Positions 35,016 through 63,830 of a DNA stretch of 64,000 nucleotides are shown piece by piece. A model generated the notes under the pieces. That model was not told the DNA's origin. It saw nothing but the letters and a program-made list of their open reading frames with translations, and did no database searches. The position numbers and the translations under genes are program-made. Where the stretch lies: NCBI GenBank assembly GCA_048938105.1, contig JBHLMN010000010.1, positions 152,937-216,936 on the forward strand, read 5' to 3'. Each line of letters begins with the position of its first letter. Positions within the stretch are counted from its first letter, which is position 1. Source of the DNA: Promethearchaeota archaeon (GTDB taxonomy: Archaea; Asgardarchaeota; Heimdallarchaeia; Hodarchaeales; Hodarchaeaceae).

Positions 35016-35151
35016 CCTTACGATGATAGTAATATGTTTTTCTCGACCGATTTCTCCGTGTTTTCTTTGGTCAGGTGCGCTGGGACTTTTCCCTATTTTC
35101 TCTTTTCTTTTTTGACCTGTCTTGATGATGTTTGATGTCGTATAACGTTGG
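35016..35151 (+). repeat. Dispersed repeat copy 1 (136 bp) ending in dif-like site A
   Basis: Highly similar to 36176-36311; 3' part also at 47734-47810. Confidence 0.9.
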
Positions 35152-35162
35152 ATAATGGAATA
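35135..35162 (+). other. dif-like site A: ATGTCGTATAA-CGTTGG-ATAATGGAATA
   Basis: 11-6-11 layout; left arm 10/11 identical to the XerC-type arm ATTTCGTATAA. Confidence 0.7.
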
Positions 35163-35296
35163 AACGTTCCGAACACATGTTAAGATGAATATCAAACTTT
35201 TGAGTCGCATCCATAATTCAGGGAGGGATAGCTATTTTGGACCATATTTTTATTGAGTAATGGCCAGAGTAGTCCTGACGCGAGTAAAAATTCAAA

Positions 35297-35324
35297 ATGC
35301 TCTTGAACCTTGGTACTATACCAA
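35297..35324 (+). other. dif-like site B: ATGCTCTTGAA-CCTTGG-TACTATACCAA
   Basis: Left arm resembles that of site G (TCTTGAA); 13 bp from the vapC stop. Confidence 0.5.
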
Positions 35325-35337
35325 TCTACATCTAGAT

Positions 35338-35760
35338 TTATTCCATTACTCGCGTGAGATTAAAAGTATCGAAATGCTTGTCAAAACTATAGATTTCAGT
35401 GAGATTCAAGCGGTCCATCAAAATTTTGGCTAACGAGTCATTAATCCCTACTTTATATCGTTGAGCGAGAACAGTGGCCCCTTGATAGTCACTATGGGGC
35501 ACATCGAGGACTGTAATCGATTCCTTTGTTAATAGATCATAAATGAATTGAGACGATTCACTATAACTCTTACGAGATTCTAAGATGTTTGCTACTTCTG
35601 ATAAATGTACAACACTAGTGACGACGTTTTCTCCATTATCCACTCGTGTGATAATCTCCCTCGCGACAGTTTTTATTCTTTCGAGATGTTTTGGGAGCTC
35701 TTGGATGGGCTCCAGAACCGCATATAAAAATATCGAAGCATCAATAAAACGAAGTTTCAT
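35338..35760 (-). CDS. vapC: PIN-domain toxin (VapC-like)
   Basis: FIDASIFLY, SEV, INDS and IYSFDKHFD motifs. Confidence 0.9.
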   Translation of the reverse strand: MKLRFIDASIFLYAVLEPIQELPKHLERIKTVAREIITRVDNGENVVTSVVHLSEVANILESRKSYSESSQFIYDLLTKESITVLDVPHSDYQGATVLAQRYKVGINDSLAKILMDRLNLTEIYSFDKHFDTFNLTRVME

Positions 35761-35996
35761 GCTTTGTCTCCACTAAGTAAATACTCCTTTAATTTATGGT
35801 AATCCGAATAGACTTCGGGGGGTATTTCAACCTTAAGGAATTGAAAATACTTTTGTAAATTGGGGTCATCTTTAGGGATGACTAAGAGAAGATCACCATC
35901 TTCAACTAGAAAAACTTCGTTTGATTGGATCTTTTTACGCCATTCAGGAGGTAAAACAACTCGCCCTTGAGAATCGATACGTTTAAGCTCAATCAT
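35757..35996 (-). CDS. AbrB/MazE-type antitoxin (start reassigned to MIELK)
   Basis: KRIDSQGRVVLPPEWRK motif; overlaps the PIN gene start. Confidence 0.85.
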   Translation of the reverse strand: MIELKRIDSQGRVVLPPEWRKKIQSNEVFLVEDGDLLLVIPKDDPNLQKYFQFLKVEIPPEVYSDYHKLKEYLLSGDKA

Positions 35997-36175
35997 AATG
36001 AACCCATATTCTAATGTCATTCCCCACTTTATAAAGCTGATCCCCAATTGTTCTTCGTGATTACCATGTAACTTTATATGAAATATTAATCTAAATCGAT
36101 ATTGAATTGGTGGGTTTCGTATCTTCATTCCAGTCATCTTAACTATCACTTTGATGCTCTTTCAACAAAAAAAAG

Positions 36176-36311
36176 CCTTACGATGATAGTAGTATGTTTT
36201 TCTCGACGAGCTCTCCTTGTTTTCCTTGGTCTTGTACGCTGGGCCTTTTCCCCTGTTTTCTCTTTTCTTGTTTGACCTGTCTTGATGATGTTTGATGTCG
36301 TATAGCGTTGG
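36176..36311 (+). repeat. Dispersed repeat copy 2 ending in dif-like site C
   Basis: Direct repeat of 35016-35151. Confidence 0.9.
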
Positions 36312-36322
36312 TCAAATACATT
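36295..36322 (+). other. dif-like site C: ATGTCGTATAG-CGTTGG-TCAAATACATT
   Basis: Repeat homology stops exactly after the CGTTGG spacer. Confidence 0.65.
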
Positions 36323-36474
36323 AAGGTTATTATAGAAAAAATATATCTTTGAATTTAATTTTAGAATTAATTCTGAAAAATCCCATTAATTCTCTTTATT
36401 TTGATTGAGCCAGTGAATTCTATTTTGTGCTTTGGATAAATGGTTTTAATTTTTCAATAAAAGTTAAAGAACAG

Positions 36475-36502
36475 TTCTGAAGAAACGTTGGGTAGGTCTA
36501 TT
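36475..36502 (+). other. dif-like site D: TTCTGAAGAAA-CGTTGG-GTAGGTCTATT
   Basis: About 38 bp ending in this spacer are duplicated at ~39967-40005; abuts the MFS stop codon. Confidence 0.55.
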
Positions 36503-37805
36503 TTCTAAGAATGACAAAAATTATAGAGAGAAAACTCGCACCAATTAGACAAAATCCTCCAATATTTGTTACAAAAGATAAAGATTGGCCATTGATAAGG
36601 AGTAATGAGCCAAAAAATGATCCAATTCCGAAAGACATAATTCCAATCGTTTGTAATGTACTAATAATGGTTTCTTGTTGCATATTATGCTCGTGTGGGT
36701 GATCATGAATTCCTATAACGATGGAAGCACTTCCACTAAAGCCTAAATCAAGATGTTTATGAGAATGAGAATAACCTTGAGTTACTTCTATTTCTAATAC
36801 AGCTTTATTTCGTGCTGGTTCTAAAAAACCTTCTGCAAGCCCTGCTAAGAATAAGATTAAAAACAAGTAGAGAATAATACTGATTTCTGGATAAAAGAAA
36901 ACCACGATCCCTTTTGCTAACAGACTAAAGATTAATGGTAATGATGATCCAACCTTGTCAACCAAGCGTCCTGTAAATATTTGGCTAATCCCCCATGTTA
37001 TATCTCCCACTAAATATCCTAAACTAATACCAACCTCAGATATTCCTCCTTGCTGATTCAATAAGATAGAAAGATTAGGTGTATAAATTCCATGTGCAAA
37101 ATCATAAATAATGTAAATTAGTATTACCAATAAAATAGAAGGACCCATAAGGAGAGTTCGTATTCCCTGTTTGATGTGGAAATGTTGCCATTTCCATCCA
37201 TTTAAAGACTTGGATTTTGATTGATTTTCCCTGACTCTAATTAAATTAAGGATAATAATCAAAATGAATGTTATTATAAACATTAAACCAGAAACTATCT
37301 GTATTGACTGATCTGCTGGTATTTGATATTCTAAAAGTATTGCCCAAAATATTCCTGCAACCCCTTGCCCTAAAGCCAGTCCACTAAGTACCGCAGCAAA
37401 AAGATTTCCAAGAACTTCGCCCTCTCTTTTTTCAAAGTTTGAAGCGAGAGCTATAATTCCTAAAAAGATGAACCCATACCCTAGTCCATCGAAAATCCTG
37501 ATAAGAGTAAGGATATAAGGGTCACTCAAGATAGTCATTGAACCCGTTATAAGAAGAACTGATAATCCTCCTAACAGGAAGCGATGAGTATTTGATATAA
37601 TAATTTTACAAAGTACCATAAAACTGATAATCTGGCCGATTGAGAAGAGTGTACTTGCTATTGAGATTAGAGAAACATCCCCTCCAATATTAATAACCTG
37701 AAAAGGGAATAAAAATCGAAAACACCCCAAACTTAATGAAATCCCAAAAAGCAGTAAAAAATATTTCTGTATGTTTTTATCAGTCAAGATCAACCAAGAA
37801 GACAA
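36498..37805 (-). CDS. MFS transporter with His-rich loop
   Basis: GRLVDKVG motif A; HSHKH...HDHPHEH insert. Confidence 0.85.
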   Translation of the reverse strand: MSSWLILTDKNIQKYFLLLFGISLSLGCFRFLFPFQVINIGGDVSLISIASTLFSIGQIISFMVLCKIIISNTHRFLLGGLSVLLITGSMTILSDPYILTLIRIFDGLGYGFIFLGIIALASNFEKREGEVLGNLFAAVLSGLALGQGVAGIFWAILLEYQIPADQSIQIVSGLMFIITFILIIILNLIRVRENQSKSKSLNGWKWQHFHIKQGIRTLLMGPSILLVILIYIIYDFAHGIYTPNLSILLNQQGGISEVGISLGYLVGDITWGISQIFTGRLVDKVGSSLPLIFSLLAKGIVVFFYPEISIILYLFLILFLAGLAEGFLEPARNKAVLEIEVTQGYSHSHKHLDLGFSGSASIVIGIHDHPHEHNMQQETIISTLQTIGIMSFGIGSFFGSLLLINGQSLSFVTNIGGFCLIGASFLSIIFVILRK

Positions 37806-38009
37806 AATAGCTAGTTCCTATCAATTTTAAATGATAAATAATATTATAATGAGGACATTTATCCTTTGATTATATATTGTATATCTGGAACAGGAGGAAG
37901 ATCTGGTTTTCAGGGCTGATATAGAATTCTTTAATCTTCAAAAAACTTTTTGTCTTCTTTTTTTAAGTTTCTATGATCAATTCTACAAGAAAATCATCAC
38001 AAGAAGGAA

Positions 38010-38534
38010 GTGATTCTCATGATTTGGGTAACAAGAAATTATGTCCATGTAGACAGAGTTGCATGTCCTTGGTTGATTCAACGATTTGTAGATAAGGATG
38101 CAGAATTCCTGTTTGTTCCTGCGAATGAGGTAGAGACAGTGGCAAATGCGGTCGGAGGAGTTCCATTTGATATTCCAGGGGTAGAATTAACCCATAGGGG
38201 AAAGGAATGCTCCTTCGATGCAATTATTCAAAAATATAAGTTAATAGAATCCGCTCTACTAGATCTCGCAGAAGTTGTTAGAATTGCAGATACAGGTGGA
38301 GAAGATCCTAATCTGATTGCTGCAGGTTTGGACGCCATCGCTACTGGCGTCCCTCTGATCACTACAAATGATCATGCTGCCCTTCAACAACAGATGGTTG
38401 TCTATGATGCTCTATTAGCCTTCTTCCGATACAAAAGATTGATGGCACAATATGTGGATGAAACGAAGAATATGACCCGAGCAGAACGAAAAGCCTTCTA
38501 TCAGAAGCATTATGGAACCAATGTTGATACTTAA
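38010..38534 (+). CDS. ChrB-domain (chromate resistance) protein
   Basis: WVTR..HVDRVACPWLI.RFVD.DAEF; THRG..CSFDAI; RIADT. Confidence 0.88.
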   Translation: MILMIWVTRNYVHVDRVACPWLIQRFVDKDAEFLFVPANEVETVANAVGGVPFDIPGVELTHRGKECSFDAIIQKYKLIESALLDLAEVVRIADTGGEDPNLIAAGLDAIATGVPLITTNDHAALQQQMVVYDALLAFFRYKRLMAQYVDETKNMTRAERKAFYQKHYGTNVDT

Positions 38535-38614
38535 GAAAGGGATAACCAGAAATTGTGAAGTATGCATAACATAATTGTTAAGGTTAGTCAGGGTCACCAA
38601 AACGGACATGGTTA

Positions 38615-39832
38615 GTGATGGGGTCAAAGCAAGTTCATTCCACCTTTTCTCAGCGTTCATTTTATGTTATTTGCATCATGGGAACGATTGCCATTCTTAG
38701 TAGTACCATGGCAAAAAATCCCACTCTTCCCCTCTTTGCTGGTCAATTGGGCGCAACAGAATGGCAACTTGGGATCATCGCGGCAATTGGGCCAATTCCT
38801 GGCATACTCTTGAGTGCACCTGCCGGAGTATTCGCCGACCGCTGGGGACGGATTCAAATGATACAACTATCACTATTCTTTTTTGCTACTGCTCCCCTTT
38901 TTTATCTATTTGTGACAGAACCTTGGCAACTCGTCCCAGTACGATTCTTTCACGGGCTAGCGACTGCTATTTTCGGCCCAGTAATCTTATCACTTATTGC
39001 TTCGTACTATCCGTTCGAACGAGCAAGTCGAATGAGTCTGTATTCATCCGTGACCATGATAGGCCGAGTAATGGCCCCCCTATTTGCGGGGTTTTTAATT
39101 TCTATAGGGTCAATTTTTGTAGTCTACTTAGTTTGTGGTATTTCTGGGGGTTTAGCCCTGTTCCTAGGACTGACCTTACCTCGCCAGCTCCTAGACCAAC
39201 CAAACCAAGCTGATTCTCTAAGGACAAGTCCTGTGGCTAGTTTATGGAGTACAATCCGTAATCATAACATTTTGGTAACTAGTTCTATGGAAGCAGTGCA
39301 ATTCTTTGCTATAGGGGCATTTGAAACCTTTTTGCCTAAACGAATGGAATCTTTTGAATGGGATCCAATGTTCATAGGTATTGTTATGGCTTGTCAAATT
39401 AGCGCGATGATTCTTTTTAAGCCCCTTATGGGAATGGTATCCGATAAGTGGCAGAGAAAACCTCTCATTGTCATTGGCCTATTGATCTGCGCAAGTTCTT
39501 TTCTACTCCTCGGATCTTTTCAAAATTTCGTGATCATCAGTGTAGGTTCACTTGGTTTTGGAGCGGGAGTTGCCATAGCAACTGCATCGACTACAGCTCT
39601 GGTTTCAGATTTCAGTAAAGAACGGGAATATGGTTCAGCAATTGGAACCCTATCATCAATTATGGATGTGGGTCATTCACTTGGGCCTTTTGTATGTGGA
39701 TTTGCTATCAGTAGCATGGGCTTTTCCACAACATGTGTGGGCGTAGCCCTACTTATCGTCATTGGTACAATTATTTTTACCATTTTAGTTCAATCCCCCT
39801 CTGTTCAAACTTCCCCTCAACCCCTCACCTAA
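38615..39832 (+). CDS. MFS transporter
   Basis: GVFADRWGR and GMVSDKWQRK motif A; about 12 TMs. Confidence 0.92.
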   Translation: MMGSKQVHSTFSQRSFYVICIMGTIAILSSTMAKNPTLPLFAGQLGATEWQLGIIAAIGPIPGILLSAPAGVFADRWGRIQMIQLSLFFFATAPLFYLFVTEPWQLVPVRFFHGLATAIFGPVILSLIASYYPFERASRMSLYSSVTMIGRVMAPLFAGFLISIGSIFVVYLVCGISGGLALFLGLTLPRQLLDQPNQADSLRTSPVASLWSTIRNHNILVTSSMEAVQFFAIGAFETFLPKRMESFEWDPMFIGIVMACQISAMILFKPLMGMVSDKWQRKPLIVIGLLICASSFLLLGSFQNFVIISVGSLGFGAGVAIATASTTALVSDFSKEREYGSAIGTLSSIMDVGHSLGPFVCGFAISSMGFSTTCVGVALLIVIGTIIFTILVQSPSVQTSPQPLT

Positions 39833-39990
39833 AAAATTCGAAAAATATGTGTAGAGTGATTCAAGCAGAAGAAGTCCAACAATATTCATGATATCCCAAT
39901 TAATGTGCCAGAAACCAACTGCTACAAAATTATCCCCAAAGGTTAGAACAATGTAGTTACAAAAAATTTTCAATAAAAGTTAAAGAACAG

Positions 39991-40018
39991 TTCTGAAGAT
40001 ACGTTAGATAATGAAATC
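39991..40018 (+). other. dif-like site E: TTCTGAAGATA-CGTTAG-ATAATGAAATC
   Basis: Left flank shared with site D; right arm resembles that of site A. Confidence 0.6.
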
Positions 40019-40072
40019 AATGTTAAGACTAATGGTCAAACATCTATTACTGTGTCTAGTATTTATCTGGTA

Positions 40073-40921
40073 CTAATCCCGTCTAGCACTTGATAACATT
40101 TTCACCCATTCAGGGTCTCTATGATTAAAAAAGGCACTCTTTTTCTGATCTAGAGATGTAATTTTACTCATATCTTCCTTGTTCAATTCAAAATTAAAAA
40201 CGTTGAAATTCTCAATTATCCTCTCCTTGTGAACTGATTTGGGAATTGCAATTACGTCTCTCTGGATAAGCCATCGCAAAGTCACCTGGGCATTTGATTT
40301 ATTATACTTTTCACCAATTGAAGCTAGTACCTCATTTTGGAACAAGTTGTTTCTTCCCTCAGCGAATGGACCCCAGGACTCAATCTGAACATTATATTCC
40401 TGCATTATTTTCTCACTCTCTATCTGTTGGTTAAAAGGATGAGTCTCGACCTGGTTAACTGCAGGAGTTATATTATTGTGAAGTATAAAATCAATTAAAC
40501 GATTAGGATAAAAATTGCTAACACCAATAACTCTGATTTTTCCTTCCTCGTATAGTTCTTCCATTGCACGCCAGGATCCATACACATCACCAAAAGGTTG
40601 ATGAATAAGATAGAGATCAACATAATCCATTTCTAACCTGTTTAATGATTTTTCAAACTGTTGTTTGGTATTATTATAATTCGCATATGGACTCCAGAGT
40701 TTAGTAGTTATGAATAGTTCATCTCGGGGAATTGAGCTTGACTGAACGGCTTTTCCAACCGCGTTTTCATTTCCATATGCAAAAGCGGTATCAATTAATC
40801 GGTATCCAGTATCAATCGCTGTTCTAACGCTCTGTTCACATAATTTAAGGTCTTTTATCTGGTAGACCCCAAATCCCAATATGGGCATTTTAATTCCGTT
40901 GTTAAGTGTTATAAATTTCAA
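40073..40921 (-). CDS. Aldo/keto reductase (2,5-diketo-D-gluconate reductase-like)
   Basis: GYRLIDTA..Y, TTKLW, DLYLIH, IGVSNF and IPKS motifs. Confidence 0.95.
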   Translation of the reverse strand: MKFITLNNGIKMPILGFGVYQIKDLKLCEQSVRTAIDTGYRLIDTAFAYGNENAVGKAVQSSSIPRDELFITTKLWSPYANYNNTKQQFEKSLNRLEMDYVDLYLIHQPFGDVYGSWRAMEELYEEGKIRVIGVSNFYPNRLIDFILHNNITPAVNQVETHPFNQQIESEKIMQEYNVQIESWGPFAEGRNNLFQNEVLASIGEKYNKSNAQVTLRWLIQRDVIAIPKSVHKERIIENFNVFNFELNKEDMSKITSLDQKKSAFFNHRDPEWVKMLSSARRD

Positions 40922-40997
40922 TGGATATTCCTTCTAACTTCGTTCTTATTAGTTATTCTAGTAATCACATATAAATTTTAAGTACGAGATTATAATA

Positions 40998-41025
40998 AAC
41001 ATATAATACAATGGCTATCATGTCC
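40998..41025 (+). other. Possible dif-like site F: AACATATATAA-CAATGG-CTATCATGTCC
   Basis: TATAA followed by a spacer one mismatch from CATTGG; weak right arm. Confidence 0.3.
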
Positions 41026-41095
41026 AACCTTCTTGTAGCGAGAAGTATCTCTTTTCGAGACCAACCATAAGTTCTCAGATTAAGACTAGGTTATT

Positions 41096-41123
41096 CATGT
41101 CTTGAACATTGGTTATACGACAT
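41096..41123 (+). other. dif-like site G: CATGTCTTGAA-CATTGG-TTATACGACAT
   Basis: Right arm is the exact reverse complement of the site A left arm. Confidence 0.7.
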
Positions 41124-41247
41124 TCTACTCAAATAGAAGTAATTTTCCATCATCCAGCTTAGCTACTTTATTCACAATATACAGATAAGACTTTAATAAA
41201 AAGAATTGTAAAATCTGCACTAAAAAAAACAGCCATTCCCTCCTCAA

Positions 41248-41430
41248 CTAATACAGGACATTCTTTGACTTATGAAGAACCAGTGTGACGTAGTATATCT
41301 GATAATTTCGCATTGGGATGGTAATACTTTTTCTCATAAGCCACAATCTCACCGTGGATAACCCTCTCAGACACCACTGAAAACAGGCGATACAATTTTC
41401 GCAGTGGTGCAGCCACACGGGTTTATGCAT
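41248..41430 (-). pseudogene. Remnant of an EFR1-type ferredoxin C-terminus
   Basis: KPVWLHHCENCIACFQWC, then loss of similarity; no N-terminal flavodoxin part. Confidence 0.5.
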
Positions 41431-41647
41431 GATTTTAACCTACATATAATTAAGTTATTTGATAATTGATACAATAGATCACTTCAAAGTCGTTTAACAA
41501 GTGACTTAAGTAATATGAAGAATTAGATGGATGTTTTTATTTAAATTATTTCATAAGATCGGTTTCTTTAAATAGGAAAAGACACAAAACCAAACTTGAG
41601 AAAATTTAATAATAATCGATATGGAAGATTGAAGGGGTCATTTCTAG

Positions 41648-42358
41648 ATGAAAACTATACAAAAAATGACTCTTAAAAGAGGATGGCCTCTAATTATTTT
41701 CGCAATTATTTTACTTTCTGGATGTGTGGGGCCTGCAGCACCAGAACGAAAACCACTGGAGAAAGTTATTAACAGGGAAGCAGAGAATGAGGAGGGATAT
41801 GAGGTTATTGCATTCGTAGAGAGAGCTGATGTTTTAGATTTCCTTATTGTTGAAGCTAATGACACAACAATGACAAGTATTAACAATTCTCAATATGATA
41901 AATTATTCATACAAAATATTTCTCAAACATTGTTAGATATTGAACAAAGTTATTTTCATTCCTCACATTATCAAGGATTCCTTAATTATTCAATAATCGC
42001 CAAATTTATTTCAATAAAAAATTACACTGAGATTAGTACACTTATAATGAAACAACTACGTAACTTTTTAGTTCCTAATACAAGCGGTTGTGTGGGTTAT
42101 ATTCCTAAAAAACTAGGAATAAATAATACTCAGATTGAAGAACTTTCATTAGAAAATGACTTGATTAACGTTTTAAGCAAAACAAATCTATCTAAGAGTC
42201 TTTGGTTAGTTACCGTAGGGATTCATTTTTGGTATCTTGATGCAGCATATAGAATGGGCCGATGGGAAACTTCTGTTTATTGTTCAGAAATTTGCTTATT
42301 AGATCCTGCTTTAAATTTCGCCGCTATTTTTACCATAAGATCGTCTAATTCCCTTTGA
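41648..42358 (+). CDS. Hypothetical lipoprotein
   Basis: Lipobox-like LLSGC after a signal peptide. Confidence 0.7.
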   Translation: MKTIQKMTLKRGWPLIIFAIILLSGCVGPAAPERKPLEKVINREAENEEGYEVIAFVERADVLDFLIVEANDTTMTSINNSQYDKLFIQNISQTLLDIEQSYFHSSHYQGFLNYSIIAKFISIKNYTEISTLIMKQLRNFLVPNTSGCVGYIPKKLGINNTQIEELSLENDLINVLSKTNLSKSLWLVTVGIHFWYLDAAYRMGRWETSVYCSEICLLDPALNFAAIFTIRSSNSL

Positions 42359-42447
42359 GGCTCTTGGGCAAATTTTAATTAATGGATTGATCATATTCAT
42401 CTAGAAAGAAAAGATAAAAATAGTAACCGAAATGTCATTCTTTGTTG

Positions 42448-42528
42448 TTGTTAAGAAACGTTGGTTTTATTCATTCTTTAATTAAAAGTTAATTAATAAG
42501 ATGTCAAAAAGTGTTGGAAATTCACACT
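42448..42528 (+). other. Pair of degenerate dif-like sites H (TTGTTAAGAAA-CGTTGG) and H2 (ATGTCAAAAAG-TGTTGG), 53 bp apart
   Basis: Left arms resemble those of sites D and A; spacing matches the 52-bp units. Confidence 0.45.
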
Positions 42529-42603
42529 AACCTCCGTAAATTCCAATTAACTTGTAAAAAATTCATATAACTAGCAGAAGACTACCTCATTTAGAGCTGT
42601 TTA

Positions 42604-44520: not shown

Positions 44521-44791
44521 TCTCTAAAACACCCTCATTTCTCTCAATCCTATTTACTGAATTCTTGGTAAATTAATGAATTCATGCCCTTTGAAAATTA
44601 TAAGTTAAGCTATAATTATAAATTGATTTTATTACAATCTGGGAACACTTAACCTAGTAGTTTCCTTCATAATCCCCAGCGAAAATCCCTCCAGTTTTAT
44701 CCTCCAGTTTTATAGTGTTCTAACCTCTATATGAGATTCGATATACTTTTCATTGCGTTTCATAATGGGATTGAATCTTGATAAGGATTGG

Positions 44792-44871
44792 GAAAGTAGT
44801 AACATTGGATATGTTAGCAAAAATACGTATATTGATATGTATAATGTACTATAACGTTGGATATATCAATG
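44792..44871 (+). other. dif-like sites I (GAAAGTAGTAA-CATTGG-ATATGTTAGCA) and J (ATGTACTATAA-CGTTGG-ATATATCAATG) enclosing a 52-bp unit
   Basis: Unit 44803-44854 is 48/52 identical to 63762-63813. Confidence 0.7.
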
Positions 44872-44890
44872 AACTTATGTAAAAAGGAAA

Positions 44891-52930: not shown

Positions 52931-52955
52931 TTCCGAATTATTCGGAAGTTCCGAA
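52931..52955. promoter_or_regulatory. Overlapping palindromes TTCCGAAT-T-ATTCGGAA-G-TTCCGAA between divergent genes (putative operator)
   Basis: Three alternating TTCCGAA half-sites. Confidence 0.55.
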
Positions 52956-52990
52956 GTTATAATTTTCAAACTGTTGGAATTGGTAAGATA

Positions 52991-53779: not shown

Positions 53780-53985
53780 ACAAGAGAACAGAAAGAGAGA
53801 ATCATCACACAAGTATTTGTTGTATCATTATCAATTTTCTTGATAATTAGTTTAAAATACAATTTTCATTAAATGAGTTCTTTTATAAAGTTAAATGTCT
53901 TAACTCATTGGAGCAATGAATATAGAACAGGGAGAAAGAAAAAAGGTATAGGGATTCTTTTTAAAAATACAAAAGGGAAATTCAA

Positions 53986-55149: not shown

Positions 55150-55173
55150 GCGATTGAAAAAGAAAACACAATT

Positions 55174-55735
55174 TTCTTTGGATGTAGATAAAATGTCAAA
55201 TAATTACTGTCAAGAAATTGAAAAAGAAGCAAAAAAACTGGTAGAAATAGCAACTACCATTAAAGATCCCTCAAACTCTTATCAAAAGGAATTAGAACAT
55301 GTAAAAAGTCTTGGGGAATCAATAATTCGAATTTGTAATTGGAATACAGACCCAGAAAAGCAAAAGGAGTTTAAAATGATGCAAGGATTAATGGATGTTT
55401 TTAAAAATCCTGATAAGAAAAACGCTGGAATCAAAATGAAGAATATTTTTGAGGAGTTTGAAGGAAAATCGATTAATGACGAAGAACTTGCAGAAATCGA
55501 AGATCAGTTGCAAATACTTGAAGGTATTTCAATTCCTGAAAATAGTCCAGTTTTTACAGGTGCACAAACGGGTAAACCTGTAGAACAAGCAGAAAGTATC
55601 CTAGATGAACTCATGAAGTTTTCAAAAATTATGATCCATTTGCCTGAAGTTCAAAACATCATTATAAAAATAGATAAATTGGCAGAAAACTGGTATAACT
55701 CTGAAAAACCAGATGATAAGATTATTAGGCTTTAA
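55174..55735 (+). CDS. Hypothetical helical protein (ATG at 55174 assumed)
   Basis: ORF co-oriented within the element. Confidence 0.6.
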
Positions 55736-55803
55736 GACATCCGAATTTTACGAATTATTAATGATTATTCTTAATACTGCTATTTAAAAAATGAAAAAAG
55801 GGG

Positions 55804-58800
55804 ATGATTATTGTTTTGACAACCTCTCAATTATTAGAGGGAATAACTGATGCAGGAAAATTTGAGTTACTTGCATCTGATATTTTGCGTTATAAATATC
55901 CAGAACTCGAAGGTTTAATACATATTGGAGTAACAACTTCAGGTAGAACCAGAAGATCACCCTTAGATGGATTTTTGAAGATTCCATATTCCGAACCACC
56001 CCATTACGCGTTGATTCAACACACCACAGTTGATTTGGTCTCATTAAAAGAAAAATGGATTGACGATCTAGAAAAAGCACATAAAATAAGTTTAACAATA
56101 CAGGAAGAAAATGCTGTTTTTACAATTTATTTAACTTCTAACAAGATCATTAATGACGAGATATGTAAAAAAATATACCAAAGAGCCAGCGAACTTGCTT
56201 TAGCGCCAATTTTAATCGAAAATACAATTATCTCAGCTTTTTTAGATAATGATGAAAATGGACAATGGCTTAGAAAAAAATATTTCGGTGTTATTGATGA
56301 GAAACTATCTAAAAACCGCTTCACGAAATTATGTCAAGAAAGTTTGGAGAGATATGAACATAACTTATTTGAGTGCAAAGTAGAATCATTGATAGATAGA
56401 GAGATTGAAACCACTTTAATAAGAAAGATAAAAACTAATAAAAAGTCAATTTTTTTTATTGTAGGAGAATCAGGATACGGTAAATCATCAATTGCATATA
56501 AAACACTAGTAAATCTCAAAAATAGCGATTTTACACTTTGGTTTCCACCAGAAATAATCAATAATAACTATTCATTGCAAGATTCTCTATCTGATTGGTT
56601 CAAACAGCTTTATCCATATATCGAATCTAAATCAGGAGAACAAGCTGTAAGGAATGTGAATGTTACTGAAAAGAATTTAGTGATTGTAATTGACGATATT
56701 AATAGAACAAATAATCCAGTAAATATTTTGGATAAAATTATTAGATGGTTAAAAAGTAAAGAGGAAAAATCCTTTAGCTCTAATATAAAATTTATAATCC
56801 CCTTATGGCCGCAAATTTTTAGGCAAATAAAAACTAAAATCGAAAGATTACACTTTATTGACTCATTATTTCTAGATAGATATTCTTTAGATGAGGCTAA
56901 AACTGTATTGTTAAACGGATTAAAACATATGGAACATTCTCATACTATCGTTGAAATTGAATCCTTTGTGAAGAACTTAGGACTTGATCCTTTCTTAATT
57001 GGATTATTCCTTGAAAATCTAGATTTCAATAGAGGTTTAATAACCGTAGAACCTCACGATATTATTTATTCGTTCATTAATAGATGTATTCAGGAATTAG
57101 GCAGCCAATTCATGGATTATTACCAAATACTCTTTGAGTTGTCATCAAAAATGATTTTGGAGAATAATCATTATCCGTCTTGGAACTATATTACTAAATG
57201 GTTTGATAACCAGAATAAACTTGTAGCATTAAAGGATCTGGTTAATCAGGGAAAAATTTGCAGAACTGACGAATTATTTCATTTGCATTTTCGCCACGAT
57301 CGTTTAAAAGATTATTTCATGGTGGAAAATTTTAAACATTATATAAAGAGTAATGATGATGAATTTGATGAATTATTTTTCGATCCTTTTTATGCACCCC
57401 TAGTAGCAAAGGCTATCTTGTTCAGGTATCTTTCTAATGGTTTTCTTAAAAAAATCCAACATTCATCACCATTGATACTTTTCGAATGTTTGAAGATTAT
57501 TAAACCTCCCGATACGACACTCGCTAATCAGATTGTAAAAAATATAAACGATTGGATCAAAGTAAGCAATATAAAAAACAATTTGGATGATCCACCTAAT
57601 TGGGAAGTTTACCATTCGTTCGCTTGGTTGTTAGCTGAGACAGATTCTCCATTCGTTTTAGATATAACTGATGACTTGCCTCATTATTCAAATATTGCTT
57701 TAGCAAGATTAAGGAATGGTTCTATAGATAGTGGTATTCGTTATTGTTCAAGAGATGGAGCAGAAATTTTGCGAGTGAATGATCCTCAAAGAGATAAAAT
57801 CTTAAAACATGCTTTGATGAGATATAAAGATAAAATTATTGAGGATTTAAGAAATATTTTGGAAAATCCTTCTGATTTTAAAACCGAGTATATTAGAGGG
57901 GCTCTTTTCATTATCGGCCAACTTAGACTATATGAACTTGAACATGATTTATCAAATTTTTGGGATTTAGTTCAAAATAAAGCGGAATTACTTTCATTGA
58001 TGCTTTGGGCTACAATGAGATGCTGTAAATCCTCAATAAATGTAATTATGGAGGAATTGATTGACTTTTGGCTAACATTACCAGATGAAGGAGAAAATTC
58101 AATTAAACAAGTTTCCTCAGAGATTGAATTTGGTCTAAAGAAAAAAATAAATCCTATTGCCCTGAATATATTAATTGAGAAAGCAAATGCACATGAAAAA
58201 TTGAAATGGCCGGTCTCTTATCTTCTAAGAGGTGTAGATAACCGTAGTGCTCTTGAATTTGTAATAAAGGAAGCTTCAGAAATCAAAAAATCTCTTGAAG
58301 GTACTGACAAATTTTCTGTTTGGTTGAATAGAATTGACGATGAGTGGAATCCAAGACTTCATAGATCAAGAAAAATGTCTAAAGATTCAGTAGATTTCTT
58401 ACGATCCTTATGGGAGGATGACCTGAATGACAAATACATAAGGACAATCTCTTTTCAATTATGGTTACATAGTTTAAATCAGGATGATCTTGATTTTCTT
58501 AAAGAAGTTCAAAATGAAAAGCTTTTCTTTAATTTGGCTCTCTATAAAAGGGTTGGGCTTGGTGATTTATCCTGCATATATGAATATTGCAATAAATTAA
58601 GAACAAAGCCTTATTGGGTACATATGGCTTATAAAATCTGGAGTAATCCAATTATTAAAGAAATAATTCATATAATTAATTCTGACGAATTTGTTTCAGA
58701 TAGCCCGAATTATAAAAAGGATAGTTTTTTTTGGGATTTAGCAGAAGTATTAACAAAAATTCCTACATACAAAGCTGATATATTTATTGTTGAAAATTGG

Positions 58801-59448
58801 GACGATTTAAAATCAAACTATAAAATTATACAAGCTGCACTATATGTAGGTACTGAAAAATGTCTAAAGTTGGCTAAACAAGCAATTATAAATTTAAAAG
58901 ATCGCGACAGTATATTCAAGTATATTTCATCCCTTTTTGGGTGTAACACATTAGGAAAACGTGAATACTTAACATTAGAAAAAATGAAAAACCTAATTCC
59001 GTACTTAAATCATATTCCTCCTAACGAACTTGGGTATTTTGGGCAACATTGTCAAAAAATAGGTGAGGTTGAATGGAGTAAGATGTATCTCTACGAACGG
59101 ATGGATCCATTATATAAGAAGACCTTACATCCGACAAATGATCAACTATATTCCGAAATTGAGAGCATTTTAAAACTTGATGACATTTTTGGCCGCACAT
59201 ATTTTTGGGTAGAGCGATTTGATGAGAGAAAAGATACTAAAGAAAGGCTTTTAGGATTATTATCCCAATTACTAGATAAAAGTCCTTCATATAAATCCGC
59301 TGAATTTGTTTCTATTTGTTTGAAGCTAAAAGGTGAAAGGAGAGATCTAAATATCTTAGATCATGAATTTCCAGAGGAAATCTCTTATAAAATAAAAAGA
59401 TTAAAGGAAGCGACAAGATTCAGGATATATAGAAGAACCCTAATGTAA
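55804..59448 (+). CDS. STAND/NACHT-like NTPase with N-terminal REase-like domain and helical C-terminus (Avs-like defence protein)
   Basis: FELLA..SPLDG N-terminus; Walker A GESGYGKS; Walker B VIVIDD; FRHDRLKDYF. Confidence 0.75.
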   Translation: MIIVLTTSQLLEGITDAGKFELLASDILRYKYPELEGLIHIGVTTSGRTRRSPLDGFLKIPYSEPPHYALIQHTTVDLVSLKEKWIDDLEKAHKISLTIQEENAVFTIYLTSNKIINDEICKKIYQRASELALAPILIENTIISAFLDNDENGQWLRKKYFGVIDEKLSKNRFTKLCQESLERYEHNLFECKVESLIDREIETTLIRKIKTNKKSIFFIVGESGYGKSSIAYKTLVNLKNSDFTLWFPPEIINNNYSLQDSLSDWFKQLYPYIESKSGEQAVRNVNVTEKNLVIVIDDINRTNNPVNILDKIIRWLKSKEEKSFSSNIKFIIPLWPQIFRQIKTKIERLHFIDSLFLDRYSLDEAKTVLLNGLKHMEHSHTIVEIESFVKNLGLDPFLIGLFLENLDFNRGLITVEPHDIIYSFINRCIQELGSQFMDYYQILFELSSKMILENNHYPSWNYITKWFDNQNKLVALKDLVNQGKICRTDELFHLHFRHDRLKDYFMVENFKHYIKSNDDEFDELFFDPFYAPLVAKAILFRYLSNGFLKKIQHSSPLILFECLKIIKPPDTTLANQIVKNINDWIKVSNIKNNLDDPPNWEVYHSFAWLLAETDSPFVLDITDDLPHYSNIALARLRNGSIDSGIRYCSRDGAEILRVNDPQRDKILKHALMRYKDKIIEDLRNILENPSDFKTEYIRGALFIIGQLRLYELEHDLSNFWDLVQNKAELLSLMLWATMRCCKSSINVIMEELIDFWLTLPDEGENSIKQVSSEIEFGLKKKINPIALNILIEKANAHEKLKWPVSYLLRGVDNRSALEFVIKEASEIKKSLEGTDKFSVWLNRIDDEWNPRLHRSRKMSKDSVDFLRSLWEDDLNDKYIRTISFQLWLHSLNQDDLDFLKEVQNEKLFFNLALYKRVGLGDLSCIYEYCNKLRTKPYWVHMAYKIWSNPIIKEIIHIINSDEFVSDSPNYKKDSFFWDLAEVLTKIPTYKADIFIVENWDDLKSNYKIIQAALYVGTEKCLKLAKQAIINLKDRDSIFKYISSLFGCNTLGKREYLTLEKMKNLIPYLNHIPPNELGYFGQHCQKIGEVEWSKMYLYERMDPLYKKTLHPTNDQLYSEIESILKLDDIFGRTYFWVERFDERKDTKERLLGLLSQLLDKSPSYKSAEFVSICLKLKGERRDLNILDHEFPEEISYKIKRLKEATRFRIYRRTLM

Positions 59449-59974
59449 TAGAATGTGGTTAACAACCTTATTGGCGAAAAAGTCATAAACATCTGTTAAA
59501 TGGCTATTTTATGCCAAAGACGGAAAAATGTCTTCAATGTCCAGAAACTGAGACTATTCTACAATGTTTTTCCTTCTTTCTCATATTAAAGATAGGAAAA
59601 AATCATAAAGCATATCTCAAAGAAAAACAGAGTATACAAGAATGATAAATCCTTTCACAACCCAATTTTTTTAGTCTCATATAATTCGGAAGAACAAAAT
59701 TGAGATTTAAAACAGTCAAATTTCAAAATCAGTTATCGCAAGAAAATTCCATAATGATTTCACCTAAAATTAGGAATGAGAAATAGTTCCTATAAAAAAA
59801 GATTTTAGAGACAAAGAAAATAACACCATAGACGTACTTGATACAACAATAGGGGAGTTTAATGCCATTCTATAAATTTAGATTTAAATTCCTAAAATAG
59901 TATATTATAGGAATATTTTTTATAATAGTGGGATATTCTAATATTTCATTTTAAACCAATCAGAGGGAAAATTT

Positions 59975-60853
59975 TTGACTAAGGATCAAATATTGAATGA
60001 CGTTCTTGAATATTGGAAAGAACAACGAGAACAAATTATCAGTAAATCGAAAGAAGTTATGAAAGGAGATCTACAGACACTCAAGGGAACACATCGAGAA
60101 TTAATAATAGAAGATTTTTTTAGAAAATTTTTTCCAAAACGATTTGATTATGGTAATGGTTACATTATTGATTCTGAATTAAACAAAAGTAATCAATCTG
60201 ATGTAGTTATCTATGACGCAGAGAACCATCCTATAATTCCATTAAGAAATTATAACTACTTTTTTGCTGAGTCAGTGAATTTTGTTTTCGAAATTAAAAG
60301 TTATCATAACAAAGAAGAACTCGAAAAAGTTATTGAAGGAACAAAAAAAATTAATCAATTAAAACCTCATTTAAAACCTAATTTCGATTTATATAAGAAA
60401 TCAATTGAAACAAGGTTTTTAAACATAGAGAAAAGATTGATTTATCATACTAACAGCATGGACGACCCCACAGAATTTTCTAAATCAGTTTTAAACACCG
60501 ATGAGCTAATACCACTTGCTTTTCCAAATCCTATATTAACTGGTGCTATTTTCCTAAAAACTCAAAAGAAATTTGATCTTGAGGAAGCGCTAAATGAGCA
60601 AGGAATACAAAGTATCCATAAAGAGTGGCCAAACCTTATGGTATGGCTTGAAGAGGGGATTGTATGCCTGAAGTATTTAGGGAGGATCACAATCTTTGAA
60701 CCTAAGGAATATTGTTTATTTCTAGTTTTTATAATAACTATTTCACTGTTACAAGAATTAATCGGTGATACTGAGAGAAAAGACATATACCCAATTTATA
60801 CTTGGGGTCAAAAATTCAAACCTATTCATAGTAGGTCATATGACTGGAAATAA
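59975..60853 (+). CDS. PD-(D/E)xK nuclease-fold protein (DUF6602-like)
   Basis: G..RE..I..F....P......G.IID....SNQSDVVIYD...AESV...EIKS. Confidence 0.75.
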   Translation: MTKDQILNDVLEYWKEQREQIISKSKEVMKGDLQTLKGTHRELIIEDFFRKFFPKRFDYGNGYIIDSELNKSNQSDVVIYDAENHPIIPLRNYNYFFAESVNFVFEIKSYHNKEELEKVIEGTKKINQLKPHLKPNFDLYKKSIETRFLNIEKRLIYHTNSMDDPTEFSKSVLNTDELIPLAFPNPILTGAIFLKTQKKFDLEEALNEQGIQSIHKEWPNLMVWLEEGIVCLKYLGRITIFEPKEYCLFLVFIITISLLQELIGDTERKDIYPIYTWGQKFKPIHSRSYDWK

Positions 60854-60914
60854 TCTAGAAAAGTGGGTTAAAAAGTCCACTAATTTGTTATCTTACATAT
60901 TTTTTATATAATAG

Positions 60915-60942
60915 ATGTGCAATATCGTTGGATATATCCCAG
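60915..60942 (+). other. dif-like site L (attR): ATGTGCAATAT-CGTTGG-ATATATCCCAG
   Basis: Left arm is 9/11 inverse of the site K right arm; right flank ATATATC...GAACTT shared with site J. Confidence 0.7.
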
Positions 60943-61023
60943 AACTTGGGTATTGTTGATGTATGATATCGCACGAACCTTTGTATAGTATTTAGCAATT
61001 AAGAATAAGGGAAAAAATTTCCC

Positions 61024-61971
61024 TTATTGCCTATAGATCCAATGTTTAGCCCCTTGCTCTTCACTTATATTAAAACCGATTTTCTTATAGAATTCAAATG
61101 CTGGATTGTTAAGTACTATACTTCCCACCATTTCTTTTGCTTTTTGTTTGGTGAAATAATCCTTGGCTCCTTGTATCATTGCCTTTCGAAGACTTACTCC
61201 ATCTGGAAATTCTTGATCCACGACCATCCCCCCAAAATTACCATACACCGTGGTGTCTTTTTGTCCTCTATCTGCGGGTGAATGTGTTCCAACATGTATG
61301 TATCCCTTTAAATCTCCTTTCCAGTAGACGAGGAAAGAATCTTCTGATGACATCTCTCCGTTATCAAATCTCTCTGTAAGATTCTCAACCGTAATTTCTT
61401 CGCCTACAATACTTTCCTTGGATTTACGGTAGGTCACCAACGTTGAAAAATCATCTTTTGTTAATGGTTTGATTTCAAAATCCGACGATATCTCAAAATT
61501 AATTTCGTTAATCGGAAGACGCATCTCACGAGCTTCTTGAACTTCCACCACCTTTGCTATTGTCTGACTTTCGAAATACTCATGAGCTTTCTTGAAATCA
61601 TACGCGTAGTGGGATTCGATCGTTCCTGGATTTTTTTTGCTATCTTCTTTAGCAAATTCATAGATTGCTTTGAACAGTCGATCCAATGTTTCTTTCGATC
61701 GGTATTCCTTTAAAATTATAGGGTAGAAAATGCCGTGGAAGCCGCCATGAATCCGACATTCAGTATACCCCACAATCTGTTGATCTTGAGTTACTAGATA
61801 TTGAACTTGCTTTGGATTAAAATTTGGTTCTTCGTGACGTTTCCGAACTTTTTCTGCTGTAATTAGTTCAGGTTCTGGTATCATTTCTACAATTACTGTG
61901 TTGAATATTTCTGCCTGGGCTTCTTCATCCCCTTTTTCATAACTACGTATAGTTAAACTTTCTTGGACCAT
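61024..61971 (-). CDS. Tandem GNAT acetyltransferase
   Basis: TIRSYEKGD; IVGY; N.PAFEFYKKIGF. Confidence 0.8.
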   Translation of the reverse strand: MVQESLTIRSYEKGDEEAQAEIFNTVIVEMIPEPELITAEKVRKRHEEPNFNPKQVQYLVTQDQQIVGYTECRIHGGFHGIFYPIILKEYRSKETLDRLFKAIYEFAKEDSKKNPGTIESHYAYDFKKAHEYFESQTIAKVVEVQEAREMRLPINEINFEISSDFEIKPLTKDDFSTLVTYRKSKESIVGEEITVENLTERFDNGEMSSEDSFLVYWKGDLKGYIHVGTHSPADRGQKDTTVYGNFGGMVVDQEFPDGVSLRKAMIQGAKDYFTKQKAKEMVGSIVLNNPAFEFYKKIGFNISEEQGAKHWIYRQ

Positions 61972-62175
61972 TTTTATTCTTTCCTTATTCTTTGAATTAT
62001 TTGGATTTCTTGTTTAAATGATCATTCCATTTATAATGGAATTATTCAGTTATATATTGAATGATTCAATAAGAATTTTATTCATTCAAAAGGTATTTAA
62101 TCTTTACTATTCTGGCATAATATACAATTCAAACCCCGTACAGGCATTTCACACTATTCTTGTGACGAGATTACA

Positions 62176-62877
62176 ATGGATGAAAAACGAGAAATATTAT
62201 ACAGTTTTTGGGAATCTCTTCCTCCACTGAAGATTATTTCGAGACCAGAAGAAGAGGTTTACGGTCACAAAGTGCGATTACATATTATTCAAATATTACG
62301 TAAAGGAATTTTAGATCGATTAGATAACAGTAGAAGGCGTAGGGCGTTAAACGCGAGAGAAATATTATCTATTCTAAAGGAGATGCAAACAGAGGAGGAC
62401 AAAGACGAAGAAGAAGCCCCAAAAGCTAAAGATATCAGCTTACAAAGTCTATACTTTCATTTACAGAAACTAGAAGAAGCTGAATTAATACAGACTGTTA
62501 CTATTTTACGGAAAGGAAGTCATAACACAGCCTACTATGGCAGAACAGCACGAATCTTTCTTCACACTGATCTTGTAAAACATGAACAAAAGATCTCTCG
62601 GGCTTTTACAGCAATTAAACAATTTGTCAAAGTAAAAAATCCAGATTTAAATGTAGAAAAACTCGATAATTTTCGTCAGAGGTATCTTACTCATGAAAAA
62701 CAGAGAAGTGAAAGAATCTCCAAATGGTTTATCCAATATGAATCCCTGATTGTAGAGAACAATATTGATCTGACCTCATTTTTCAAATTTATGGAAATTA
62801 TCGACACTATTAATCCTGAAAATATTCAAATCCTCAAGGAATTGCAAGAAACTTTAAAATTTGAATCATTACCATGA
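62176..62877 (+). CDS. ArsR-like winged-helix regulator
   Basis: H.VRL.IIQIL; SLQSLYFHLQKLEEAELI; YYGRTAR. Confidence 0.85.
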   Translation: MDEKREILYSFWESLPPLKIISRPEEEVYGHKVRLHIIQILRKGILDRLDNSRRRRALNAREILSILKEMQTEEDKDEEEAPKAKDISLQSLYFHLQKLEEAELIQTVTILRKGSHNTAYYGRTARIFLHTDLVKHEQKISRAFTAIKQFVKVKNPDLNVEKLDNFRQRYLTHEKQRSERISKWFIQYESLIVENNIDLTSFFKFMEIIDTINPENIQILKELQETLKFESLP

Positions 62878-63047
62878 GAAGATCAGAGATGACACCATTT
62901 TTGGTATCGCTGCTCTCTATATTTTATCGCAACCCGAAGTTGAACAACTCTATACTAGATAGAGGTAAGTTCGTGTGAGGAGGGAGTTCTTTCACTCTTT
63001 TTCCCTTCTTGATATCTTTTTATTATATCATGCACAGCTACACATGA

Positions 63048-63293
63048 GTGTTATCAATGGGTTATAAAACTATATCATTATCTGAAGAAGCCTATAAACG
63101 ATTATTAGAAAGAAAAAAGGGAAATGAAAGTTTTAGTGATGTTGTAATGCGATTAACGACCAATAGTACATTAAATGATTTTGTTGGGCTTCTCTCTCGA
63201 GATTCTTGCGATAAAATTGAGAAAGCTGTTGCAAAATTTCGTGAGTCTCGTGAAAAAATCTTTAGAAAAGAAATTGAAACTTTAGTGGATTAA
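63048..63293 (+). CDS. vapB: VapB-like antitoxin (DUF217-type)
   Basis: KTISLSEEAYKRL..K..NESFSDVVMRL. Confidence 0.88.
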   Translation: MLSMGYKTISLSEEAYKRLLERKKGNESFSDVVMRLTTNSTLNDFVGLLSRDSCDKIEKAVAKFRESREKIFRKEIETLVD

Positions 63294-63706
63294 TGCTGAG
63301 AGGAACGACATTAATGATTGCTGATACGTCCTTTCTTATTGATTTGATGAGAGAGCATAAGGGTGTACTTGCCAAGCTGTCTGAAATTGAAAGAGAAAGT
63401 CGTCGTCAATTTCTAGCAAGTCCTTCGGTGTTTGAACTGGCTGTAGGAGTCGCTATGAGTGACCTTCCCGAGAAAGAAAAGACTAAAATTTTTGGAGTCA
63501 TTGAAAGTTTCTCGATCATTCCGTTAACGTTCGAAAGTACCTGGCGAGTAGGACTTGAATTAGGAGAACTTTATAATAAAGGTAAATCTGTTGATCCAAT
63601 TGATGGACAAATAGCAGGAATTGCATTAGAGTATAATGAACCGATTGTGACAAGAAATGTTACTCATTTCAACCGTTTTCCCAGGTTAAAAGTCGAATCT
63701 TATTAG
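63293..63706 (+). CDS. vapC: PIN-domain toxin
   Basis: IADTSFLIDL, FEL, DGQIAG and VTRN..HF motifs. Confidence 0.92.
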   Translation: MLRGTTLMIADTSFLIDLMREHKGVLAKLSEIERESRRQFLASPSVFELAVGVAMSDLPEKEKTKIFGVIESFSIIPLTFESTWRVGLELGELYNKGKSVDPIDGQIAGIALEYNEPIVTRNVTHFNRFPRLKVESY

Positions 63707-63750
63707 CTTATTATTTTTTACGTTAATTTTTCTTTTTTTTGACATGACAG

Positions 63751-63830
63751 ATGTCATATAACATTGGATAGGTTACCAAAAATACGTATATTGATACGTA
63801 TAATTTACTATAACATTGATTAAGACTCTT
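63751..63830 (+). other. dif-like sites M (ATGTCATATAA-CATTGG-ATAGGTTACCA) and N (ATTTACTATAA-CATTGA-TTAAGACTCTT) enclosing the second 52-bp unit
   Basis: Left arm of M is 10/11 identical to that of site A; unit duplicated at 44803-44854. Confidence 0.7.

Follow-up and report, generated by a model that had tools for sequence, protein, structure and literature searches.

How genes are taken up into the large and flexible genomes of the Hodarchaeales, which are among the nearest known archaeal kin of eukaryotes, is an open question, and it is raised in a concrete form by a 64,000-nucleotide stretch of one such genome (hereafter the window; G000:C56:152937-216936, the right edge being the contig end). 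From position 35,135 of the window onwards, groups of unrelated genes and gene-free units follow one another, separated by short sites that resemble Xer/dif recombination sites and all point the same way. What is this locus, and what moves its units? In our reading, the stretch from 35.1 to 64 kb is probably the left-hand portion of an island in the chromosome that measures at least 46 kb, where modules of one to three genes, gene-free units and one 13-kb element lie between directly repeated Xer/dif-type sites, and where Xer-type strand exchange within the hexamer CGTTGG moves the units.

The host genome (G000; 5.85 Mb in 65 contigs) was compared with 20 further genomes of its genus and with 61 other genomes of the class. 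The labels G001, G009 (a closed genome), G011, G012, G014, G017, G018 and G020 denote relatives, while X2, X3 and X5 denote public runs, which were examined as assembled Logan contigs and in which gaps in the cover of a module were not taken as evidence.

A family of co-oriented intergenic sites

The sites follow the consensus ATGTCGTWTAA-CGTTGG-(T/A)TA and have the 11-6-11 layout of tyrosine recombinase sites, which has been described for Xer/dif in archaea (PMC2958812). When aligned they read (G)ATGTCnTnTAA-CGTTGG-(T/A)TA, with a mostly good left arm, a mostly weak right arm and conserved inner TAA-N6-TTA bases, which bears out the Xer/dif geometry claimed in a preliminary description of the window. 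Two-armed sites also occur. One of them, at C53:230098, is the palindrome ATGTCGTTAAA-CGTTGG-TTATACGACAT, and in the window the core at 41107 is directly trailed by the exact inverse arm TTATACGACAT, as had been noticed before.

A strict search with the 17-mer ATGTC[GA]T[TA]TAAC[GA]TTGG, allowing at most two mismatches, gave 28 matches genome-wide against a single one in the reversed genome that served as control; five of these arm-plus-core matches (35135, 36295, 44844, 47789 and 63751) fall within the 29-kb array stretch. Scoring of the full site at a threshold of 18/22 was abandoned as mostly noise (60 matches vs 46 in the control). With a position weight matrix (PWM), 144 matches scored 13 or more, 82 of them intergenic in a genome that is 15% intergenic, and adjacent matches less than 10 kb apart were co-oriented in 48 cases and opposed in 2, figures that are descriptive because the matrix was trained on a subset of the same sites and neighbouring pairs are not independent. 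At C56:188-217 kb the scan returned 11 matches, all intergenic and on the plus strand, and across the first 35 kb of the window it returned none, in keeping with what had been proposed for both parts. All supported sites of the window are intergenic and on the plus strand; the genes between them lie on either strand independently of site orientation, and site placement relative to gene starts and stops is inconsistent. That these are real, co-oriented, intergenic recombination sites is solid.

Of the 15 cores listed originally, all lie where they had been placed and 13 are supported, those at 42512, 42459, 44803, 60926 and 63814 through shared flanks or breakpoints in relatives. The other two, at 35308 (CCTTGG) and 41009 (CAATGG), are armless and sit inside homology blocks that are unbroken in relatives, and we dropped them.

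The genome scan upheld the expected intergenic, co-oriented placement of the sites, whereas the expected confinement of their clustering to this locus failed: about 80 sites form at least 12 co-oriented clusters in the genome (C3, C7, two on C9, C11, C34, C37, C52, C53, C56, C61 and C63), many of them at contig ends. The idea of a single platform falls for the same reason, and also because there is more than one spacer class. A second class, ..GTCGYAAAA-GGCTGG-ATTAACAC, has its own co-oriented intergenic arrays on C39 (217-271 kb), C43 and C63 and is also listed at C5; copies of AAGGCTGGATT, which belong to this GGCTGG class, are intergenic in 20 of 24 cases. The sites explain assembly breaks in these metagenome-assembled genomes and are practical markers of the accessory genome.

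Exchange at the core and cargo shared among species

In order to see how the DNA on either side of the core is combined, the 30-nt flanks of all intergenic core-like hexamers of the genome were sorted into families, left flanks apart from right ones. Left families L2 (7 copies), L3 (4) and L6/D1 (4) are each joined to differing right flanks, just as right families R1 (9), R2 (6) and R3 (6) are each joined to differing left flanks, and one right type stands behind two left types (L2-R18 at C3:11749 and L6-R18 at 36306 in the window). In the alignments, conservation stops (L2, L3, L6) or begins (R1-R3) exactly at CGTTGG. Because the right families are conserved over just 20-25 nt, they behave as extended half-sites of a few types and not as the ends of long repeats. 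In what is a small sample, sites of the same left family vary in the core at positions 5-6 alone and those of the same right family mostly at positions 1-2, a pattern that fits strand exchange within the hexamer. The alignments show that the DNA on the two sides of the core has been re-assorted there over and over. The flank analysis also brought up a repeat outside the site family, ...CAGACCGAACGCCCTCA-CATTGA-AGATAATTGAAAT..., with at least 8 copies in G000 at C8:5-52 kb and C18:144935.

The array of the window is given here from left to right, followed by its dispersed repeats:

33543-34535, minus strand: TFB (TFIIB) gene by Pfam, the conserved chromosomal flank left of the array
35135-35162, plus strand: site A, ATGTCGTATAA-CGTTGG-ATAATGGAATA, the leftmost array site, which ends copy 1 of repeat D1 (35016-35151)
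35152-36311: module 1, vapC (35338-35760, minus) and a vapB-like AbrB/MazE antitoxin gene (35757-36149, minus), by Pfam PIN and MazE_antitoxin; ends in D1 copy 2 and core 36306
36312-36491, plus strand: gene-free 180-bp unit; ends in a D4/L2-type site, core 36486-36491
36492-40007: module of MFS (36498-37805, minus), ChrB_C (38010-38534, plus) and MFS (38615-39832, plus) genes, by Pfam; ends in an L2-type site, CGTTAG at 40002
40008-41123: module of an aldo/keto reductase (AKR) gene (40073-40921, minus; Pfam) and a PadR-like remnant (40010-40067); ends in the two-armed site ATGTCTTGAA-CATTGG-TTATACGACAT, core 41107
41113-42464: module of a 236-aa open reading frame (ORF; 41648-42358, plus), no Pfam match; ends at core 42459
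42465-42517, plus strand: 53-bp gene-free unit (site doublet); ends in ATGTCAAAAAG-TGTTGG
42518-44808: module of a TPR protein gene (42604-44520, minus); ends in ...GGGAAAGTAGTAA-CATTGG, core 44803
44809-44860, plus strand: 52-bp gene-free unit D3; ends in ATGTACTATAA-CGTTGG
44861-47805: module of a 799-aa protein gene (44891-47290, minus; weak PKD match) and a truncated D1 copy 3 (47741-47805); core 47800
47806-60931, plus strand: integrated element of 13.1 kb, attL core 47800, attR core 60926
60932-63767: module or modules of GNAT (61024-61971, minus), HTH_20 (62176-62877, plus), VapB (63048-63293, plus) and PIN VapC (63293-63706, plus) genes, by Pfam; ends in ATGTCATATAA-CATTGG, core 63762
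63768-63819, plus strand: 52-bp D3 unit; ends in CATTGA, the array continuing beyond the window and contig end
D1 repeat: 35016-35151, 36176-36311, 47741-47805 and C3:7321-7457, ending at the core
D4 repeat: 36448-36491 and 39964-40007, ending at the core, with five further copies on C61, C3 (two), C14 and C53
D3 repeat: 44800-44859 and 63759-63818, ending at the core

Pfam agrees with the gene content first proposed for vapBC, MFS-ChrB_C-MFS, AKR, TPR, the integrase element, GNAT, HTH and the second vapBC; a lipoprotein at 41648-42358 and a hydrolase at 44891-47290, which had also been named, were not confirmed. The three dispersed repeats said to terminate at the core were recovered by repeat search as D1, D4 and D3.

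Several junctions of the array can be followed outside it. Site A matches the 17-mer without mismatch, D1 identity stops at its core, and its right flank (35146-35199) is found in three other species, where it likewise begins at the core. The left 65 nt of the 180-bp unit at 36312 reappear at C3:11749 behind a different (L2) left flank, a recombinant junction at the core. At core 36486 the identity of the L2 alignment is lost directly after the core, and an X5 contig diverges exactly after 36491; X2 contigs diverge within the core at 40005, so that environmental contigs offer alternative right flanks beginning at cores 36486 and 40002. Further on, 41113-41246 repeats, in inverted form, a left-arm flank of G014, and the left flank of the 53-bp unit at 42465 is identical (28/28) to C61:206449-206476, itself upstream of a CGTTGG site. 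The D3 unit at 44809 recurs at 63768-63819 (92% identity), and the genomes of other genus members hold more than 15 copies. Contigs of X3 and X5 also contain a joint from 35113 to 53133. The 58-nt PadR-like regulator gene remnant (40010-40067), which lies between a site and the end of the AKR gene (3'), is 88% identical to C39:257740-257797.

Is the cargo shared with other species? With at most one mismatch, the 17-mer was found in 19 of the 20 other genus genomes (about 80 matches vs 2 in the control), and in the 61 other genomes of the class it occurred at background level. Five blocks of cargo have close counterparts in relatives:

35257-36122: vapBC, 98% identity, G014 (C344, where the flanks differ)
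40067-41088: AKR, 96% identity, G011 (C31)
42582-44811: TPR, 92% identity, G018 (C110) and G011 (C16)
44881-47306: 799-aa gene, 88-93% identity, G012, G009 and G014
60990-62895: GNAT-HTH, 86-95% identity, G011, G014, G020 and G017

By comparison, the chromosomal core region beside the array (26000-34600) is 79-80% identical over 1 kb to G011 and G018 and hardly matches G009, G014 and G012, and for the TFB gene the identity to 8 other genus genomes is 78-83%. Since the cargo (86-98%) is closer than the core region (at most about 80%), it has moved between species recently, and on these identities we consider the mobility of the cargo solid. Around cargo such as AKR and TPR the relatives carry co-oriented CGTTGG sites and different neighbouring units; in G011:C31 the AKR gene again lies between two co-oriented CGTTGG sites, while the site-proximal ends and the neighbour differ. 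GNAT-HTH occurs in unrelated contexts in its four species, in two of which there is no CGTTGG site within about 200 nt. In G009, every site of the array at 3.074-3.090 Mb is on the plus strand, and the G000 homologues of the array's genes are spread over more than 10 contigs. The same site family and many cargo genes thus circulate among the species of the genus.

Comparison with relatives also shows how the array came to lie where it does. Upstream of TFB, no CGTTGG site was found within 12 kb in 8 relatives, which rules out a conserved platform beside this gene. Beyond TFB, the next genes in 6 of the 8 are syntenic with G000 C11:144.5 to 125 kb, and sites in matching orientation are present at the C11 end (150-161.8 kb), such that the continuation of the array is the reverse complement of C11:161770 to about 144700. 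By the synteny and these sites, the array of G000 is an insertion of at least 46 kb, divided by the assembly. Just left of the first site, a 199-bp segment (34829-35027) within a 113-aa ORF without family match is 89% identical to C11:160811-161009, a location that synteny assigns to the distal portion of this array; D1 corresponds to the ORF's 3' end.

Candidate recombinases and competing explanations

Which enzyme would act at these sites? G000 has just three PF00589 genes, namely XerA on C14, which passes the equivalog NF040815 (283 bits vs a cut-off of 220), the integrase of the window, and a gene on C45 that is interrupted by a stop. In G014 and G001, genomes that are 94-95% complete, XerA is the sole such recombinase shown. 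XerA has been reported to recombine dif in vitro without a partner (PMC2958812), and Xer excises DNA between direct repeats with identical central regions (PMC11705084). A perfect palindrome, ATGTCGYAAAA-N6-TTTTRCGACAT, occurs roughly once per genome in 14 of the 21 genus genomes, its spacer differing from species to species, and gave zero control matches; it has the expected look of dif and is our candidate for it, and its arm agrees with that of the array at 9-10 of 11 positions. In G000 the candidate dif lies at C14:250384-250411, with spacer TCATCA, away from the arrays. Taken as a conserved 28-mer, this sequence had been rejected as dif, the exact match being missing in 20 relatives; it was the arm-only search that returned the species-specific spacers. 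Genomes with XerA only and the dif-like arm favour XerA, short of proof.

We propose that a Xer-type recombinase would pair two sites of the same spacer and exchange strands within CGTTGG. Between direct repeats a circle could be excised and then re-inserted wherever a site has the same spacer, be it in this array, in another, or in another genome after transfer, and the spacer classes (CGTTGG, GGCTGG and others) would serve as compatibility groups. The enzyme would most likely be host XerA; alternatively, it would be one of the Xer-like integrases riding on elements inside the arrays. It is possible, and we put it forward as a tentative extension, that host XerA is the engine of a genus-wide Hodarchaeales cassette system without a dedicated integrase. 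Such a system would comprise many chromosomal arrays of co-oriented sites, these double-strand sites would be dif-like with a small set of standard ends, and the spacers would define the compatibility classes; it would be a native archaeal counterpart of integrons with another recombinase and another site logic.

The 13-kb element in the middle of the array has a recombinase of its own. Its recognisable genes are as follows, assigned with Pfam, PADLOC and PHROGs:

47873-48343: RHH/NikA-like
48334-49203: Xer-like integrase of 289 aa, 27% identical to XerA and under all cut-offs
49282-50325, minus strand: HNH, type-IV-restriction-like (methyl-directed)
53986-55149: Ras-like GTPase
55804-59448: STAND NTPase of 1214 aa
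59975-60853: NucC/PD-DExK-like DUF6602 protein

From 49282 to 60853 this is a defence-like gene set, accompanied by five ORFs without family match. With its integrase near one end, direct terminal repeats, a foreign composition (GC about 0.30 vs 0.36-0.40 around it) and its absence from the 20 other genus genomes, save one 67% match to the RHH-integrase pair, the segment 47806-60931 is an integrative element of the ordinary kind, for which an array site served as attB. The rebuilt attP, ATGTGCAATAT-CGTTGG-ATAATACACAT, is palindromic and shares the array spacer, and its arms are unlike the array arm. In G009 (C1:736000-744000, 1210-2884) a 135-aa ORF (RHH) and a 290-aa Xer-like integrase make up a 1.7-kb unit between two co-oriented sites, and here the integrase is itself arranged like a cassette. 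The RHH-integrase operons begin 44-73 nt from a site.

A number of observations weigh against the island being a set of cassettes moved by Xer-type exchange. Most sites have one good arm only. No recombinase is tied to the sites, and its part in the scheme is one that we infer; the different arms of the 13-kb element mean that more than one enzyme may act, and the candidate dif has a spacer that differs from that of the array. No circle or deletion junction was seen in the assembled contigs of the public runs. Between species, the homology of the cargo is often lost close to the gene, 20-190 nt before the cores are reached (AKR and vapBC at both ends, TPR on the left, GNAT-HTH), and in G012 the 799-aa gene and in G009 the RHH-integrase pair are inverted relative to their flanking sites. 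Since homology stops short of the cores and cargo occurs in either orientation, the cassettes are not clean core-to-core units; cargo and site ends are partly separable, with decay or other recombination also shaping the arrays. The cassette shuffling proposed at the outset therefore stands as regards flank exchange at the core and cargo carried in other contexts by relatives, and not as regards clean cassettes. Breakpoints had been expected at the cores: the right end of the TPR block lies exactly at one, and its left end, 22 nt past the stop codon, and the ends of AKR, vapBC and GNAT-HTH do not.

Sites spaced 50-53 bp apart form a further difficulty. Such doublets or triplets occur in the window (42459/42512, 44803/44855, 63762/63814) and elsewhere in G000 (C7:5665/5717, C9:7694/7746, C9:96790/96840/96893, C53:221986/222038, C63:108181/108231); they make up 8 of the 17 close site pairs of this genome, and there are further cases in relatives. 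A circle of 52 bp is not plausible. The spacing of the doublets amounts to about five helical turns, and the 46 nt between the cores look like a right half-site followed by a left half-site, with no cargo.

These difficulties lead us to consider whether the array is rather a graveyard of independent integrations, in which separate elements, with an integrase of their own or using Xer like IMEXs, entered a hot spot in succession at the same att and then decayed, leaving the sites as old attL and attR scars and no working platform for shuffling. With its Xer-like integrase, the 13-kb element fits this description exactly, and gene remnants (the PadR fragment, the D1 fragments), arms degenerate on one side and cargo homology that is not core-to-core are all what this history would leave behind. 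Yet most units consist of one to three ordinary accessory genes, or of 52-180 bp, and have no gene for mobility; a small number of short ends (L2, L3, R1-R3) come back beside unrelated cargo in at least 12 arrays and several species; species share cargo gene by gene in new orders; and three tyrosine recombinase genes face some 80 or more sites. We therefore hold a graveyard to be unlikely, if a serious competitor.

The conserved end families of 20-60 nt that abut the core, the recurring 52-bp units and the strict co-orientation could also be the mark of a family of small non-autonomous transposons (miniature inverted-repeat transposable elements) that a non-tyrosine enzyme, such as an HUH/Y1 or a serine recombinase, inserts beside CGTTGG in one orientation. 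However, a search of G000 with PF01797 found no Y1 HUH transposase, while control genomes were matched, and the sole intact serine recombinase gene lies far from the arrays. A 6-bp spacer enclosed by inverted 11-bp arms is moreover the layout of tyrosine recombinase sites, as are full palindromes, and left and right end families occur independently of each other, all of which makes such a family very improbable. The least probable explanation, if only slightly so, is that the sites are a regulatory motif of variable-island genes (an operator, promoter or terminator), kept for protein binding and without a role in recombination. Intergenic, AT-rich sites with TATA-like arms, their operator-like palindromes and the nearby starts of the RHH-integrase operons would suit a motif of this kind; their inconsistent position relative to gene starts and stops and an orientation independent of the genes do not, nor do long flank families that break exactly at the core and recombine combinatorially, or sites that bound an integrated element. 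Directly repeated sites at which Xer-type exchange moves the units consequently remain the explanation that we prefer.

Comparison with known systems

In pdif/xrs modules, 28-bp 11-6-11 sites bracket adaptive genes, including toxin-antitoxin genes, and the central region sets site compatibility (PMC6449649, PMC11705084). The arrays share with them 28-bp 11-6-11 sites with conserved inner palindromic bases flanking adaptive genes, and the occurrence of the same module in different contexts. pdif/xrs modules are plasmid-borne, however, with sites that are mostly inverted and/or differ from each other in their central regions, and depend on the XerC/XerD pair (PMC11705084). The arrays have direct repeats with one shared spacer (48/50 neighbour pairs co-oriented) and a single XerA, and the distinction from Acinetobacter pdif drawn in the preliminary description, which rests on that direct orientation and shared spacer, holds against the modules of PMC11705084. 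Unlike pdif/xrs, the arrays are also archaeal and chromosomal (from TFB to conserved genes), reach at least 46 kb and number at least 12.

The archaeal integrons and attC clusters described to date, which are enriched in Asgard, are based on attC and IntI (PMC9668308). Like integrons, the arrays are co-oriented series of small accessory units with recurrent ends, carry toxin-antitoxin, GNAT and transporter cargo and show exchange across species. Unlike integrons, they have neither IntI nor attC hairpins, as had been surmised: with TIGR02249 the best match in the genome is XerA (90 bits, and 173 bits in a second scoring, vs a cut-off of 265; the window integrase reaches 64 bits), and ten site regions folded as single-stranded DNA gave -2.8 to -9.5 kcal/mol (z +1.0 to -2.5) and no stable hairpins. 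In their sites two inverted double-strand arms enclose a 6-bp spacer, and the cores are direct repeats, whereas attC sites, which are 57-141 bp long and made of imperfect inverted repeats with R'' (RYYYAAC) and R' (GTTRRRY), fold into stable single-strand hairpins. Within an array, genes occur on either strand and require promoters of their own, whereas integron cassettes are co-oriented, mostly promoterless and read from Pc; and there are many arrays in place of one platform beside an integrase.

IMEXs, such as CTX/TLC at the dif of Vibrio, integrate at chromosomal dif by means of host Xer and have no integrase of their own. They resemble the arrays in that integrase-less DNA lies between dif-like sites with one good and one degenerate arm, and in their tandem accretion. 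The arrays differ in lying off the candidate dif and having another spacer, in units that are single genes and not phage or plasmid genomes, and in dozens of sites per genome. With the archaeal XerA/dif system of dimer resolution (PMC2958812) the arrays have in common the 11-6-11 site, the XerA equivalog and an arm near that of the candidate dif; dif, in contrast, is unique per chromosome, against some 80 or more array copies with cargo between them. The aloposons of Heimdallarchaeum (PMC8813620), which target tRNA genes and carry giant genes, are unrelated to the arrays.

We found no description of Xer/dif cassette arrays in Asgard or other archaea in the literature. To our knowledge, dif/Xer-based capture has been proposed in bacteria only for the pdif modules of plasmids, where excision has not been found. 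If the arrays are active, they would provide a concrete mechanism for the gene-by-gene exchange of DNA among Asgard species, with compatibility defined by the spacer, and would show that the dif/Xer machinery can be converted into an integron-like capture system on a chromosome. The arrays work like an integron or a set of dif modules and yet belong to neither, since defining features of both fail, which points to a so far undescribed archaeal system of gene shuffling.

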